Source: an uncultured Candidatus Saccharibacteria bacterium (GTDB taxonomy: Bacteria > Patescibacteriota > Minisyncoccia > Phycocordibacterales > Phycocordibacteraceae). From it: a stretch of DNA of 64,000 nucleotides. Of the stretch, positions 2,529 through 27,810 are shown piece by piece. Within the stretch, counting starts at the first letter, position 1; each line of letters begins with the position of its first letter. Location of the stretch: assembly GCA_964569655.1 (NCBI GenBank), contig CAZMTN010000001.1:64542-128541 (forward strand). Reading direction: 5' to 3'. The notes under the pieces were generated by a model. The model was not told where the DNA came from and made no database searches. It saw only the letters and a list, made by a program, of their open reading frames with translations. A program made the translations under genes and the position numbers.

Positions 2529-4235
2529 ATGGAAGGATTGCCCGGAGCATCTAAGAAGGAACTGAAGGACGCGCCGGCGTTCATACGTCAGTTCTCTCGC
2601 GAGACTGACCCGAAGGGGCGGCAGGTCGTGGCCGAGCATATCCGGGATCAGCGCCGGATGAAGGGGCATGCGAAGGAGATGGTCAAGGCCAGAGGCGAGC
2701 AGGTCGCGGCCCTCAATAGAGCGCTCGATGAGTACAACAGCGGCTCGTATGTCGTGAAGGTACTCGATTATTTCAAGATGAAGAAAGTGCGGGAATCGCT
2801 GAAGATCGCGAAGCAGGAGAGGGAGGAGACTTCCACCATCTTTCGCGCATATAATAGCAATGAGCAGAACCAGAAGTATATCGACTCGTTCTATGAGCGC
2901 GAGAAGCGCCGCTGGGCTGAGACGCCGTATTCGAAGGAGGAGGTGAGCGCGCTTTTCACCGAGGAGCATCTCGCGTCTCTCTCTACAGAAGAGTACGGCC
3001 TCCTCATGAGGCGGTTCCCCTCCGAGATGGTGACGCACGTCACGCGGCAGGGCATCCGGGATCATAACGGCATGGCGTACCACTTCGAAGGGAAGAGCGA
3101 ATTTCATGACGGCTTCGAGAAGATGCTTGAGACCGGCCGTCTCCATGCGCCGCTTGCGGTTGCGCTTGCCGAAGCGCAGAAGCAGGATGCGCTTATCGGC
3201 CTCATAGGCCGGGAGGTGGGAGGTCCTCCGCAGAACAGGAAGCAGGCGCTCGAGGCGCTCGATCGCGAGCTCTACCGGTATCCGGACCGGAATGCGGCGC
3301 ACTTCGCCGCGGAGGAGGTAGCAGATCATTTCTACGGATCGGAGCGCGGGAACGAAATATTCGTGGCGTACCCGTCCGCGTTCATCGCGTCTCAGTACCG
3401 GTTCCAGAACCGGCTTACCGCGGGCAACGAGACCATGCATAACGACGTGTCTGTCTGGGATAAGGAGCAAAAGGGCATGGACCTCGATGCGGGGCTGGTC
3501 TTCATACCTAAGGACGCGCGCGTGGACGCGGCTACCGGTTCTCGCTACCACCTCACCCCGGACAAGGAGCCGAAGCCGAACGAGGCTATCCCGCTCATCA
3601 AGCAATGGATCAACCGACCTGAATTCGTGCCGCTCGCGGAGAGGATGACGGAAGCGCTCGCCGGGATACATGAGTCGGACATTCCATCGCCGGATGCGTG
3701 GGATTCGCTCAAGGAACATTCCTTCAAGACCCGGGGAGAGAAGGTTGCCGAGACCATGATCCCGCTGCGCGAAGAGCTTAAAGCGATGGGCATCACCGAC
3801 GTGCGCCTTCAGAGCGCGCTCCTCTCCTATGGGGCTTTCTTCTCCTTCGCGATCGGCTTAGGCAAGGACGACGCGGAGCACGCGATCGAGGAGGCGATCG
3901 ACTCGCTCCTGGAGCAGGAAGGGATCCGCTTCGTCGAGGCCAAGGATGCGATCTCATCGGAGGAGTACTGGGAACGGTATTTCGCGAAGCACCCGGACCG
4001 GAGGCCGTCGAAGATCATCTACTACAAGGGCGCTGACCCCAGCTTGGCGCTCCGGGTCTGGAAGAAGCAGAACGGCCTCAGCCTCAAGGCCGAGGACGAG
4101 ACTCTCGGCTTCGCAGAGCATCAGGTCAACGGTGAGCACCCGGCTGCCCAGCAGGGGAAGGGCCGCTTCGAATCCCTTGTGCGCGAAGCGATAGACCGGG
4201 AATTTCCTGCGGGAAAGGCTGGCGTGGTAGATTAG
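2529..4235 (+). CDS. uncharacterised soluble protein, 568 aa, no recognised domain
   Basis: ATG at 2529 lies 1 nt after the msrA stop (TAGcATGGAAGG). Balanced amino-acid composition unlike antisense artefacts, no TM segments, no catalytic motif I can recognise. The competing minus ORF 2442..3719 is R/L-rich junk. Confidence 0.6.
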   Translation: MEGLPGASKKELKDAPAFIRQFSRETDPKGRQVVAEHIRDQRRMKGHAKEMVKARGEQVAALNRALDEYNSGSYVVKVLDYFKMKKVRESLKIAKQEREETSTIFRAYNSNEQNQKYIDSFYEREKRRWAETPYSKEEVSALFTEEHLASLSTEEYGLLMRRFPSEMVTHVTRQGIRDHNGMAYHFEGKSEFHDGFEKMLETGRLHAPLAVALAEAQKQDALIGLIGREVGGPPQNRKQALEALDRELYRYPDRNAAHFAAEEVADHFYGSERGNEIFVAYPSAFIASQYRFQNRLTAGNETMHNDVSVWDKEQKGMDLDAGLVFIPKDARVDAATGSRYHLTPDKEPKPNEAIPLIKQWINRPEFVPLAERMTEALAGIHESDIPSPDAWDSLKEHSFKTRGEKVAETMIPLREELKAMGITDVRLQSALLSYGAFFSFAIGLGKDDAEHAIEEAIDSLLEQEGIRFVEAKDAISSEEYWERYFAKHPDRRPSKIIYYKGADPSLALRVWKKQNGLSLKAEDETLGFAEHQVNGEHPAAQQGKGRFESLVREAIDREFPAGKAGVVD

Positions 4236-6276: not shown

Positions 6277-7425
6277 ATGAAGCGTCTCCTCCTTGCCGTG
6301 CTCGCGCTCCTCCTTCTCCCGGGAGCGGCATCCGCCGCGACCGTAGAAGGCGCGCGGACCATGGTGGTGTCCGAAACGCCGGAAGGCAACGGCTACTTCT
6401 TCGCGGCAGACCTCACCGTCGCAGCTCCGGTTGCGGGAGACCTGAGCGCGCTCGCCGGAGGTCTCGTGGTCTCGGTACCGGTTACGGGGGACGCGACGCT
6501 CATCGGCGGATCGGTAGACGTGCGCAAGGCGATCGGCGGGGACCTGCGCATTGCCGGCGCGCGCGTCACCATCGATGAGGACGTAGCCGGAGACATCGTC
6601 GCGGTCGGCGGCTCAATCACGGTGCACGCCTCTCCCGCATACGCATGGATCGGCGGCGCGAATGTCACCATGGACCGAGGAGCACAGGGGCCGGTCACGG
6701 TCTACGCCGGGAACCTCACGCTCTCCGGCACCTTCGACGGGGACGTGGACGTCGTCGCATCGGACCGCATCACGCTCCTTCCGGGCACGGTGATAGCAGG
6801 GAACCTGAGCTACGACGCCCCGCAGCAGATCGAGATCCCTGAGGGCGCGAGCGTCGCGGGGACCGTGACGTACACCGGGCGCTCGTACCTGCCTACGACC
6901 GAGGAGGCGCAGACCTTCGCCATCGCCGGCGCGCTCCTCTTCTTCCTCGTGCGCATCCTTGCGGCAGTAATCGCGGCCGGCCTCGTCGCCGGGCTCTTCC
7001 CGTCGTTCGCGCAGGCGGTCGCGGACCGTACGCTCTCGTCGTCCGTCAACCGCTTCCTCATCCTTACGCTGCTCGGGTTCGGGGTGCTCGTTGCGTCGCC
7101 GGTGCTCATCCTGCTGCTCCTCGTCTCCTTCGCTGGGGCGATCGTCGCGTTCATCCTGCTTGCCGCGTACATCCTCCTGCTCCTCCTTTCATACCTTTAC
7201 GCGGCCGTCATCGCTGGAGCCGCGCTCTCGCGCACCATCTCGAAGCGCACGGCCTTCCTCTGGCGCGATGCCGTCTTCGGTATGCTCGCGCTCGCGGTCG
7301 TAGGGCTCATCCCCGTCCTCGGCTGGCTCGTCCTCTCCGTGCTCATGGCCGCTGCAGCCGGCACCATCGTCTCCTTCGCGTACACGCTCGCATTCGGCAG
7401 GGACGACGAGCTCTCGTTCGAATGA
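6277..7425 (+). CDS. secreted/membrane protein with bactofilin-like (DUF583-type) beta-helix repeats and a C-terminal multi-TM region
   Basis: Signal peptide (MKRLLLAVLALLLLPGAASA). Repeated G-D/V-containing beta-strand units (GDLRIAGARVTIDEDVAGDIVAVGGSITV...). Four or five C-terminal TM helices. Confidence 0.5.
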   Translation: MKRLLLAVLALLLLPGAASAATVEGARTMVVSETPEGNGYFFAADLTVAAPVAGDLSALAGGLVVSVPVTGDATLIGGSVDVRKAIGGDLRIAGARVTIDEDVAGDIVAVGGSITVHASPAYAWIGGANVTMDRGAQGPVTVYAGNLTLSGTFDGDVDVVASDRITLLPGTVIAGNLSYDAPQQIEIPEGASVAGTVTYTGRSYLPTTEEAQTFAIAGALLFFLVRILAAVIAAGLVAGLFPSFAQAVADRTLSSSVNRFLILTLLGFGVLVASPVLILLLLVSFAGAIVAFILLAAYILLLLLSYLYAAVIAGAALSRTISKRTAFLWRDAVFGMLALAVVGLIPVLGWLVLSVLMAAAAGTIVSFAYTLAFGRDDELSFE

Positions 7426-8084
7426 AGCAGGAAGAACGGAAAGCCCGCGCCCGGAAGATCGTCTCGTACCTGAAGCGCGCATACCCGCGCCCGGAGACCG
7501 AGCTCCATTACAAGACGCCCATACAGCTCGTGGCGGCGGTGATGCTTTCCGCGCAGTGCACGGATAAGCTCGTGAACCGGGTGACGGATGCGCATCTCTT
7601 CAAGAGATACAAGACGGTGGAGGATTTTGCCTCGGCAGAGTATGCAGAACTGGATAGGGAGATCGGTTCCATCTCGTTCCACCGAAACAAGGCGAAGGCG
7701 ATCATCGCCATGGCGAAGCTGGTGCGGGATGAGTTCAAAGGGAAGGTGCCGCGCACGGAAGCGGAGCTCGTCACGTTGCCCGGCATCGCGTACAAGACCG
7801 CCCACGTGGTGCTCGGCGAGCTCTACGAGATATACGAGGGCATCCCGACCGACACCCACGTGAAGCGGTTCGCGAAGCGCTTCGACCTTACCGATTCGAA
7901 TGATCTGAAGAAGATCTCGAAAGATCTCGAAGCGCTCATCCCGAAGAGGGACTGGAAGTACGTGAACAACGGCTTCGTGCTCTACGGGCGCTACGTATGC
8001 CCGGCGCGCCCGCACGATTGCGCGCAGCATCCGCTTACGAAGATCTGGCCGAAGGCGCTTACGCGCTGGCCGAAGGCGACTTGA
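7422..8084 (+). CDS. nth: endonuclease III (HhH-GPD DNA glycosylase/AP lyase)
   Basis: HhH-GPD core (LPGIAYKTAHVVLG, catalytic K/D region). The C-terminal region has only two Cys (CPARPHDC), not the usual four-Cys Fe-S loop. Confidence 0.85.
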   Translation: MKQEERKARARKIVSYLKRAYPRPETELHYKTPIQLVAAVMLSAQCTDKLVNRVTDAHLFKRYKTVEDFASAEYAELDREIGSISFHRNKAKAIIAMAKLVRDEFKGKVPRTEAELVTLPGIAYKTAHVVLGELYEIYEGIPTDTHVKRFAKRFDLTDSNDLKKISKDLEALIPKRDWKYVNNGFVLYGRYVCPARPHDCAQHPLTKIWPKALTRWPKAT

Positions 8085-8115
8085 CGTTATTGTCGGTCGA
8101 GCTTAGGCTGTCGCT

Positions 8116-8277
8116 AGAGGTTCCGGGATTTAGGGATGTCGGTACAAGCAACCCCGGGGACGATTTTCAGTCTTCTGTGTCGAGTGGTGGTCCGAGTGGA
8201 TGTCATTGCTCCCTAATGAAGGCAATCGTCGTATGCATGCTAGTGCACTTACCCGGCCTCCTGATCCCGGAACCTCT
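8116..8277 (+). ncRNA. candidate structured RNA of unknown class (three-way junction closed by a 14-bp helix)
   Basis: AGAGGTTCCGGGAT (8116-8129) is perfectly complementary to ATCCCGGAACCTCT (8264-8277). A nested helix pairs TTAGGGATG (8130-8138) with CATTGCTCCCTAA (8204-8216). A terminator follows at 8303-8334. No ORF is present, GC is lower than in the flanks, and it lies 30 nt after the nth stop. Confidence 0.35.
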
Positions 8278-8302
8278 CCGTCCTTTATAGCTTTTCTAAA
8301 GA

Positions 8303-8334
8303 CAGACCCCGCCTTTGGTGGGGTTTTCTGTTTT
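8303..8334 (+). terminator. rho-independent terminator
   Basis: Stem CCCCGCC / GGTGGGG (one G-U pair), 3-nt loop, then TTTTCTGTTTT. It ends 17 nt before the HAD gene ATG at 8351. Confidence 0.55.
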
Positions 8335-8350
8335 GGGGTACCATGGGGGT

Positions 8351-9046
8351 ATGGATAAGAAGCGCCCGGTAGCGGTATTCGATATAGACGGCACCATCTT
8401 CCGTTCGTCCCTATTCCTCGAGCTCCTCGAGCGCCTGATCGAGAACGGCGTCTTCCCGAAGGAGACGCGGCACGCGTTCGAGAGCGAACGCATGCGCTGG
8501 CTGGACCGCAAGGGGGACTACCAGACCTACATCGAGAAGGCCGTCGCCGTGTTCAGCAAGCAGCTCAAGGGCGTGAAGTACGAGGATGTCGCCTTCGCTG
8601 CCGGAGAGGTGGTAGAGGAGCGGAAGGACCGCGTGTATCAGTACACGCGCGATCTCGTGAAGAAGCTCCGGAAGAAAGGCTACTTCCTCCTCGCCATCTC
8701 GCACTCCCCGAAATTCATCGCGGACGGCTTCGGCTTCGAGGTAGGGTTCGACAAAATCTATGGCTATTTCTACGAGACCGGCGCGACCGGCCGCTTCACG
8801 GGGGCCGTCGAGGACGAGGATTTGATACGCAACAAGGCCGCGATACTGCAGCGCGCGGTGCGGAAGGAGAATCTCACGCTCGAAGGATCCATCGGCGTCG
8901 GAGATACCGAGAGCGACATCAGCATGCTCGAGCTCGTCGATTCGCCGATCGCGTTCAATCCGAACCAGAAGCTCTACGCGCATGCGAAACGCCGCAAGTG
9001 GAAGATCGTCGTCGAGCGCAAAGATGTCGTCTACGAACTCAGCTAG
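8351..9046 (+). CDS. HAD-superfamily subfamily IB hydrolase (phosphoserine-phosphatase-like)
   Basis: ATG at 8351 (MDKKRPVAVFDIDGTIF) gives the DxDGT motif I. HAD motifs II and III are present (LLAISHSP ... GVGDTESD). Confidence 0.75.
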   Translation: MDKKRPVAVFDIDGTIFRSSLFLELLERLIENGVFPKETRHAFESERMRWLDRKGDYQTYIEKAVAVFSKQLKGVKYEDVAFAAGEVVEERKDRVYQYTRDLVKKLRKKGYFLLAISHSPKFIADGFGFEVGFDKIYGYFYETGATGRFTGAVEDEDLIRNKAAILQRAVRKENLTLEGSIGVGDTESDISMLELVDSPIAFNPNQKLYAHAKRRKWKIVVERKDVVYELS

Positions 9047-27470: not shown

Positions 27471-27810
27471 ACGTATTGCGGACCGGATCATAAGCCGAAT
27501 TCTGTCCTGCCTTGCGGCATGGACGGCTATCTATCTGGGGTGAACATTGCTGATCACCTCGAGCGGCGCTCCGACACTAAGATCGGCACGGCCTTGCACA
27601 GCGGTAAGGATTTAGCCGTTTCACCTCTCCGGTCGTCCGGAGAATTCATCTCAGAGAGATGTCCTCGGCTTTCGCGTCGGACGTCACTGCTCGCACCTCG
27701 CGCCTTGCGGCGGACGGGCGTTACCCGCTACCAGACTCCTGTTTCCAGGCTGTGTTCGGACTTTCCTCTGGGTTTCCCCAGCAGCCGTCACGTCCGGTCC
27801 GGGACGCATG
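27471..27810 (-). ncRNA. rnpB: RNase P RNA (bacterial type A-like)
   Basis: The minus strand carries AGGAAAGUCCGAACACAGCC (CR-I/P4 5' strand, rc of about 27741-27760). It also carries AGAGGUGAAACGG (CR-II, rc near 27620-27632). GCAAGGCC (CR-III) and ACAGAAUUCGGCUUAU (CR-IV/V, rc of 27490-27505) are present in the canonical order. Spacing between CR-I and CR-IV is about 250 nt. The P1 candidate is CGGACCGGA with UCCGGUCCG. The 5' end is uncertain and could reach about 27845. Confidence 0.8.

Follow-up and report, generated by a model that had tools for sequence, protein, structure and literature searches.

A candidate stand-alone gene for a structured small RNA between nth and a HAD hydrolase gene in Kaiserbacteria-like Patescibacteria

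6S RNA (SsrS; RF00013) binds the sigma-70 RNA polymerase holoenzyme and templates a product RNA (pRNA). Riboswitches of the purine and thiamine pyrophosphate (TPP) type have a three-way junction closed by the helix P1, and miniature inverted-repeat transposable elements (MITEs) and repetitive extragenic palindromic (REP)-like elements carry terminal inverted repeats. Here we describe an element that shares traits with each of them. Its core lies at positions 8116-8277, on the + strand, of a 64,000-nucleotide stretch (the window) of contig CAZMTN010000001.1, between nth, an endonuclease III-like gene, and a gene for a HAD-IB family hydrolase (HAD). The anatomy, conservation and covariation are those of a structured RNA. 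None of the Rfam 15 families tested includes the element, which represents a new family with four model-supported members and a patchy distribution. The reading that we favour, with somewhat more confidence than doubt, is that the element forms a gene of its own, encoding a structured small RNA (sRNA) of an uncatalogued family in a few Kaiserbacteria-like genomes of the Patescibacteria, or candidate phyla radiation (CPR). Judged by analogy, its mode of action would come closest to that of independently transcribed structured sRNAs such as 6S RNA or Y RNA.

Anatomy and covariation of the element

The sequence AGAGGTTCCGGGAT (8116-8129) was the perfect complement of 8264-8277, with 134 nt enclosed, as the initial annotation had stated. 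It formed the sole perfect inverted repeat of at least 14 nt with a spacing of 80-260 nt in the window, where 0.1 was expected from first-order Markov resamples. At the same spacing, the only other perfect inverted repeats of at least 12 nt in the window were 47168-47179/47296-47307 and 54251-54263/54376-54388; about 1.6 are expected by chance, and both apparently lie inside long open reading frames (ORFs). Folding of 8085-8340 gave z = -4.0 on the + strand versus -2.2 for the reverse complement, and folding of the core alone gave z = -5.4 versus -3.0. The core measures about 162 nt, and the full RNA, including a 3' linker and terminator, would measure about 220 nt if its ends are placed by consensus motifs. 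Its parts are as follows.

8116..8129, + strand: 5' arm of the closing helix P1; pair probability 0.72-1.0
8133..8142, + strand: 5' strand of helix P2, with outer GGGA (8133-8136), U (8137) and inner GUCGG (8138-8142); pair probability 0.62-0.88
8148..8158, + strand: conserved 5' junction strand, GCAAC CCCGGG; family consensus GCAA[C/A]CC..GGGG
8159..8164, + strand: 5' strand of helix P4, GACGAU; pair probability 0.98-1.0
8165..8224, + strand: variable apical domain of 60 nt; an insertion in the model, not alignable between homologues
8225..8230, + strand: 3' strand of P4, AUCGUC; partner of 8159..8164
8231..8240, + strand: small 3'-side hairpin HpA, GUA-UGCA-UGC; conserved in homologues, weak in the window copy
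8244..8252, + strand: conserved 3' junction strand, UGC ACUUAC; family consensus UGC[Y]AAACC
8253..8262, + strand: 3' strand of P2, with inner CCGGC (8253-8257), C (8258) and outer UCCU (8259-8262); pairs with 8133..8142
8264..8277, + strand: 3' arm of P1; partner of 8116..8129
8278..8303, + strand: pyrimidine-rich single-stranded linker (CCGUCCUUUAUAGCUUUUCUAAAGAC), the 3' tail; CUCUUUC stands here in three homologous loci (L162, L164 and L174)
8304..8336, + strand: intrinsic terminator from a terminator scan, with a stem-loop at 8304-8326 followed by a T-run

Homologous loci were obtained by walking from homologues of the HAD protein. Three of them carried a diverged copy of the element directly upstream of HAD: L162 (HAD 89% identical), L164 (79%) and L174 (76%). 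Searches with nhmmer connected L162 both with the window (E = 7e-7) and with L164 (E = 8e-7); L174, with junction sequences near-verbatim as in L162, was spotted by eye and later confirmed by profile and covariance models. To limit subjectivity, the covariance model R1 was built from the window and L162 only. It recovered L164 (35.7 bits, E = 1e-5) and L174 (25.9 bits, E = 2e-3), with no other match in the window or in 31 related loci. Profile hidden Markov models of the 5' and 3' halves, together with covariance models R1 and R2, were run over about 0.9 Mb of related DNA and added no member to these. With nhmmer and blastn, no second copy was detected in the window and no similarity in the first 81 loci; metagenome loci derived from nth added none, and a single search of viral contigs, for which the best-conserved 22-mer served as the query, gave 0 matches.

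In the four-sequence alignment, which is derived from model R1 and fitted to it, standard pairs occupied 90.2% of cells, compared to 28-52% when the partners were slid by 1-3 columns. Both sides had changed in 16 of the 31 pairs, a count reached by none of 500 shuffles. The closing helix, for which covariation in related genomes had been proposed as a check, was thus found to be kept with compensatory changes: both sides of P1 differed in 6 of 14 pairs in the covariance-model alignment. P1, inner P2, P4 and HpA were each 91-100% paired. Inner P2 (8138-8142/8253-8257) was paired in 100% of cells with three of four pairs compensatory, and its variants across copies were GUCGG/CCGGC, GCCGG/CUGGU and GUCCG/CGGAC; outer P2 (8133-8136/8259-8262) was weak, with 62% paired. 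P4 was 95.7% paired with compensation in four of six pairs (GACGAU/AUCGUC in the window, GAUGGU/ACCAUC in L162, GAUGG/CCGUC in L164, and GCGAGG/CCUCGU in L174, or GCGAG/UUCGC according to the model alignment). HpA was paired in all cells, with two of three pairs compensatory (GUA-UGCA-UGC in the window, GCG-UGCA-CGC in L162 and L174, GGC-UUAA-GCC in L164). RNAalifold recovered P1, P4 and HpA from an unsupervised alignment made with MAFFT, a program that by itself misaligned the RNA family.

The same layout was observed at two more loci, L171 and L002, each with a promoter-like motif, a closing helix of 9-12 bp round about 190-210 nt, GCAA[C/A] a short way behind the 5' arm, a terminator and HAD. 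A hand-made block alignment that included P1 of these two loci, fitted by eye, was 89% paired with 23 of 30 pairs compensatory. Among the four members, sequence conservation is highest in the two strands of the junction (5' GCAA[C/A]CC..GGGG, 3' UGC[Y]AAACC). GCAA was invariant in all six loci, and the junction motifs as a whole were not recognisable in L171 or L002. The apical extension on P4 varied freely, from 60 nt in the window to roughly 75-100 nt in L162, L164 and L174.

The second helix of the initial annotation, 8130-8138 with 8204-8216, did not hold: the two segments share 7 complementary bases (TTAGGGA/TCCCTAA) with a pair probability of 0.00, forcing them to pair cost 12.4 kcal/mol relative to the minimum free energy (MFE), and L162, L164 and L174 had no counterpart. 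The three-way-junction geometry drawn from it survived in rough shape, in that the closing stem, P4 and the 3'-side hairpin meet at the conserved junction, and the helices proposed for it did not. The GCATGC-type palindromes noted on the 3' side are real and lie in the HpA region (8231-8240).

In the window, ATGCAT, GCATGC and GTGCAC palindromes overlap at 8231-8248, and in homologues the junction hairpin is a perfect DNA palindrome (GCGTGCACGC in L162 and L174, GGCTTAAGCC in L164). The hairpin tetraloops are self-complementary (UGCA, UUAA); they could permit loop-loop dimerisation or mark a binding site at the DNA level.

The initial annotation had matched no known class by eye, and a covariance-model search of Rfam 15 (4227 models) agreed: there was no match at the RNA locus in the window at the gathering score. 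At E up to 10, all that the window copy gave was a hit to rnk_pseudo of the terminator-like kind (18 bits, E = 1.1), and the RNA regions of L162, L164, L171, L174 and L002 gave none. RF00013 (6S) did not match the window copy or the five related loci at this threshold, with Escherichia coli ssrS scoring 139.8 bits as a positive control; models of the signal recognition particle (SRP) RNA likewise found nothing in these six copies. ARAGORN and Rfam placed no tRNA or tmRNA at the locus. The absence of an ORF, also claimed initially, was borne out. No ORF of note lies in the element, and translation of the six loci in all six frames yielded no consistently shared peptide; the RNA is therefore not coding. 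Elsewhere in the window, Rfam 15 identified RNase P RNA and seven tRNAs. The RNase P RNA is of class A (27475-27801, - strand; 123.6 bits versus a gathering score of 100), and as it spans 327 nt versus 367 model positions, it may be a reduced form.

Transcription signals and the nth-HAD junction

The element is flanked by putative transcription signals of its own. A TTGnnn-16/17-TAnnnT motif was located 4-10 nt before P1 in all six loci (window, L162, L164, L174, L171 and L002); the T-T-G and T-A-...-T positions were kept, and the spacers were unrelated among the six. A simple promoter scanner missed the window motif because it needs four of six matches per hexamer and TAGGCT has three (T1, A2 and T6). 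At the 3' side, a canonical terminator follows the pyrimidine-rich linker in six of six loci. The intrinsic terminator described initially is present at 8304-8334 on the + strand, with one terminator-like match (hairpin plus T-run) found against 0.3 expected. A search pattern that joined the promoter, a closing helix of 9 bp, GCAA[AC] and the terminator retrieved the known copies only, on both strands of all DNA collected. An own promoter and the two transcript ends are thus placed by consensus motifs and are best read as predictions. The surrounding features are listed below.

7422..8084, + strand: nth, endonuclease III-like (HhH-GPD), the upstream gene; stop codon TGA at 8082-8084
8081..8086, + strand: -35-like hexamer TTGACG, overlapping the nth stop codon; putative promoter role
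8104..8109, + strand: -10-like hexamer TAGGCT, with a 17-nt spacer from the -35 hexamer; predicted start at about 8116
8339..8344, + strand: TACCAT, -10-like box of the HAD gene, 6 nt before the ATG; context, outside the RNA
8351..9046, + strand: HAD-IB family hydrolase, the downstream gene; ATG at 8351

The RNA element starts 31 nt past the nth stop codon (8084), and the T-run of the terminator ends about 17 nt 5' of the HAD ATG (8351). In L164, at 1746-1784, the 5' arm of P1 and the promoter-like motif overlap the last ~25 codons of an inserted ORF of 205 amino acids (aa); either this ORF has been called too long at its 3' end, or its overlap with the RNA gene is genuine.

The HAD gene appears to have a promoter of its own. 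Its start was preceded by TA[C/G]NAT at -12 to -7 in 13 of 15 loci and by the same box one base further away in the other two, whatever lies upstream (nth, an inserted ORF or the terminator of the RNA). That this box is kept whether the RNA is there or not suggests that the RNA forms a transcription unit of its own, whose terminator would insulate HAD. Placement of -10 elements close to the start codon is a signature of leaderless mRNAs, known in Actinobacteria and Deinococcus, and HAD would probably be expressed as such. A TAnnnT box 5-8 nt before the start was counted at 14 of the 53 long ORFs in the window compared to 2.7% of all ATGs, often with GG in front (GGTACGAT, GGTATACT, GGTAGATT). 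Examples in the window include starts near 2035, 4230, 40986 (- strand), 43165 (- strand), 49253 and 50305 (- strand); the box also occurs in the relatives L004, L006, L087 and L162-L175. This distribution suggests that leaderless mRNAs may be widespread in the lineage, which matters for the way genes are called and promoters annotated in such genomes; literature searches on leaderless genes in CPR returned nothing useful.

The gene order that recurs in relatives is bactofilin-like, nth, HAD, a second HhH-GPD glycosylase and an MFS transporter. In L004, L006, L087, L163, L169, L175 and the P0018 contig, nth and HAD are separated by only 15-45 nt and the RNA element is absent. Other relatives carry alternative cargo between the two genes: membrane ORFs of 197-205 aa without Pfam match (L164, L170 and L173), a 446-aa ORF without Pfam match followed by a terminator (L165-168), a Mu Gam-like gene on the opposite strand (L174), or a tRNA gene with repeated tRNA 3' fragments (L007). 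As both the cargo and its presence differ among relatives, the nth-HAD junction is a variable hot spot.

In L007 the tRNA gene (3751-3821, in the region 3751-3960) directly follows nth, and behind it stand two extra segments resembling tRNA 3' ends (GGTTCGAGTCCTAG / GGTTCGAATCCTAG), which look like traces of integrations into a tRNA gene. The nth protein of the window was 64-74% identical to proteins of metagenome-assembled genomes labelled Kaiserbacteria, Paceibacteria or Patescibacteria, and the window belongs to a Kaiserbacteria/Paceibacteria-like genome. Its contig is part of SRR15237806, and relatives occur in SRR16915460, SRR28624411 and ERZ27271442. L002 (CAZVJX010000005.1) and L008, both titled 'uncultured Candidatus Saccharibacteria', have nth 66-70% identical to that of the window, in the same range as the records titled Kaiserbacteria or Paceibacteria, and the nth-HAD arrangement is seen in L002 as well. 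These titles may be only a loose guide to taxonomy. A 13-nt direct repeat, CTGGCCGAAGGCG, occupies 8045-8057 and 8066-8078 of the window, at the 3' end of nth. It encodes a duplicated WPKA motif (…WPKALTRWPKAT) that is conserved in relatives with the consensus …LWPxAAxRWPKA.

Interpretation and alternative explanations

In the stand-alone sRNA reading, transcription would start at the first base of P1 from the element's own sigma-70-type promoter, TTGACG-17-TAGGCT, and would stop at the strong intrinsic terminator just before HAD, a gene with its own -10 box and probably leaderless. The RNA would be built from a closing stem of P1 and P2 (about 24 bp) that leads through the asymmetric conserved junction to P4 with its freely variable extension; GCAA[C/A]CC..GGGG would form the 5' strand of the junction, and the small hairpin together with UGC[Y]AAACC the 3' strand. 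Because the helices are compensated while the junction sequence is conserved, we infer that the junction may be the functional site and that the RNA probably acts in trans, as a stable RNA that would bind a protein or ligand. As a speculation, the linker before the terminator (CUCUUUC/CCUCC-like) could be a seed of the anti-Shine-Dalgarno type for base pairing.

Several observations weigh against this reading. The firm, model-supported members are four only. L171 and L002 are not recognised by the model, and because they show no significant sequence or model similarity, we treat them only as architectural analogues or possible distant members. All members were found from nth or HAD, so the linkage to HAD and the absence elsewhere are biased by sampling. 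The helices contain 10 G.U versus 7 A.C cells, and the strand is not proven by wobbles. In the window copy, HpA has a pair probability of 0.0, and folding into the family structure costs 4.5 kcal/mol relative to the MFE. The nth-HAD junction is without the element in about 60% of close relatives (L165-168, L170 and L173 in addition to the seven with the short gap). Finally, the RNA stands directly upstream of HAD and co-oriented with it in all six loci, as a leader would.

A bolder form of the proposal, which we put forward tentatively and regard as doubtful, makes the RNA a class particular to CPR/Patescibacteria, in which the three-helix junction would bind a protein or small molecule outside known RNA families, and a mobile cassette of promoter, RNA and terminator would occupy the hot spot. 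A variant of it would be a long-missed 6S-type polymerase regulator in such reduced genomes.

The initial annotation had left open whether the element was a standalone small RNA or a leader of HAD. A cis-acting leader, acting as a riboswitch-like or protein-dependent attenuator of the HAD operon so that HAD is reached only on terminator read-through, would fit the constant position before HAD, which persists though the upstream neighbour differs (nth, the 205-aa ORF in L164 or the opposite-strand Mu Gam-like gene in L174). It would also fit the short distance of about 10-35 nt that separates the terminator T-run from the HAD ATG in each of the six loci, and the conserved multi-helix junction closed by P1. 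However, the HAD TA..AT box lies 6 nt before the ATG in every context, including relatives without the RNA, an arrangement that fits a leaderless mRNA and is frequent in the window. P1, at 11-15 bp, is very stable and unlike switching helices; no conserved alternative pairing with the terminator was found in the six 3' tails, which were checked by eye only; and close relatives manage with a gap of 15-45 nt. With a promoter motif in six of six loci and the HAD box in 15 of 15, the standalone half of the initial proposal is better supported, and we consider a leader unlikely.

A specific version of the trans-acting reading takes the element as the 6S-type RNA of the lineage, an open-promoter mimic that would sequester the sigma-70 RNA polymerase holoenzyme. 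The size class fits (cores of 162-211 nt), as do a sigma-70-like promoter motif of its own and helices that are conserved with little conservation of sequence. The topology also approaches the Rfam 6S consensus, with a closing stem of about 24 bp, a junction of 16 x 22 nt, a hairpin on the 3' strand and a terminal stem with a variable tip, and no paper naming both 6S RNA and the candidate phyla radiation was present in the literature searched, which held nothing relevant on structured RNAs in CPR either. Yet RF00013 was silent on all six copies, the 5' strand of the junction is rich in G/C versus A/U in the 6S consensus, and much of the supposed 6S 'bubble' is paired in minimum-energy folds. 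The L171 analogue folds as an almost continuous rod, unlike 6S, and most relatives are without the RNA at nth-HAD, with only the nth/HAD neighbourhoods covered. On this balance and by analogy, a 6S-type RNA seems improbable.

The least favoured of the alternatives that we weighed at length is a functionless passenger at the variable hot spot, either a MITE-like palindrome or a decayed insert, with the terminator serving nth. Patchy presence and absence among close relatives, other cargo at the same junction (membrane ORFs, the 446-aa ORF, the Mu Gam-like gene and the tRNA fragments in L007) and a 14-bp terminal inverted repeat of the kind expected of a MITE are in its favour. But the element is single copy in the 64-kb window and in the related DNA searched, and the flanks of the arms (GTCGCT | ... 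| CCGTCC) contain no direct repeat, hence no target-site duplication. The internal helices P2 and P4 and the hairpin are kept by compensatory changes, the promoter-like motif keeps its distance while spacers drift, and no similarity connects the element to the inserted ORFs. A MITE was rejected on the copy number in the DNA searched, the missing target-site duplication and the covariation of internal helices, and a passenger of any kind appears very unlikely.

Other candidates were rejected outright: a coding gene (no conserved peptide among six loci), decayed DNA from the ORFs found inserted between nth and HAD in relatives (no similarity), SRP RNA (GUCGG pairs long-range with CCGGC, with covariation, and not in a local GNAR hairpin; no model match) and a retron msr-msd RNA (it has the inverted repeat, but no reverse transcriptase gene stands among its neighbours nth, HAD and the second HhH-GPD glycosylase).

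Comparison with known systems

CPR/Patescibacteria make up a large share of bacterial diversity, and little was found published on their non-coding RNAs. A covariation-supported RNA with a predicted promoter, predicted ends and a conserved junction is a concrete target for metatranscriptomics and biochemistry. If it is a true 6S-type RNA or another ribonucleoprotein RNA, a gap in the self-regulation of minimal cells would be filled; if it is only a lineage-restricted sRNA, it would be a modest addition to RNA family catalogues.

The 4.5S RNA (ffs) of the SRP has a domain IV segment of the form GUCCGGAAGGAAGCAGCC, to which the element shows only a short resemblance, GUCGG..AAGCAAC. MITE/REP-like elements share with it a perfect 14-bp terminal inverted repeat round about 134 bp and variable presence at an intergenic hot spot; here, in contrast, a single copy without target-site duplication has arms and internal helices that evolved by compensation and lies between a putative promoter and a terminator. 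Riboswitches with a P1-closed three-way junction (purine, TPP) are alike in their conserved junction nucleotides and in a terminator directly upstream of a co-oriented gene. They differ in that P1 is here a perfect helix of 11-15 bp, no antiterminator was found by eye, a -10 box at -12 to -7 belongs to the downstream gene itself, which is probably leaderless, close relatives do without the element, and no Rfam riboswitch matches it. 6S RNA (SsrS; RF00013) differs in its loop composition, in having no covariance-model match here, in the partial pairing predicted for the loop of the element and in the patchy occurrence of the latter at nth-HAD. What the element shares with 6S RNA, if it is transcribed as proposed, is a length of about 160-210 nt, independent expression from a sigma-70-type promoter, and 5' and 3' ends paired in a long closing stem. 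In the conserved fold, this stem leads to a large asymmetric internal loop, whose 3' strand bears a small hairpin, and then to a terminal stem, and structure is conserved far more than sequence.

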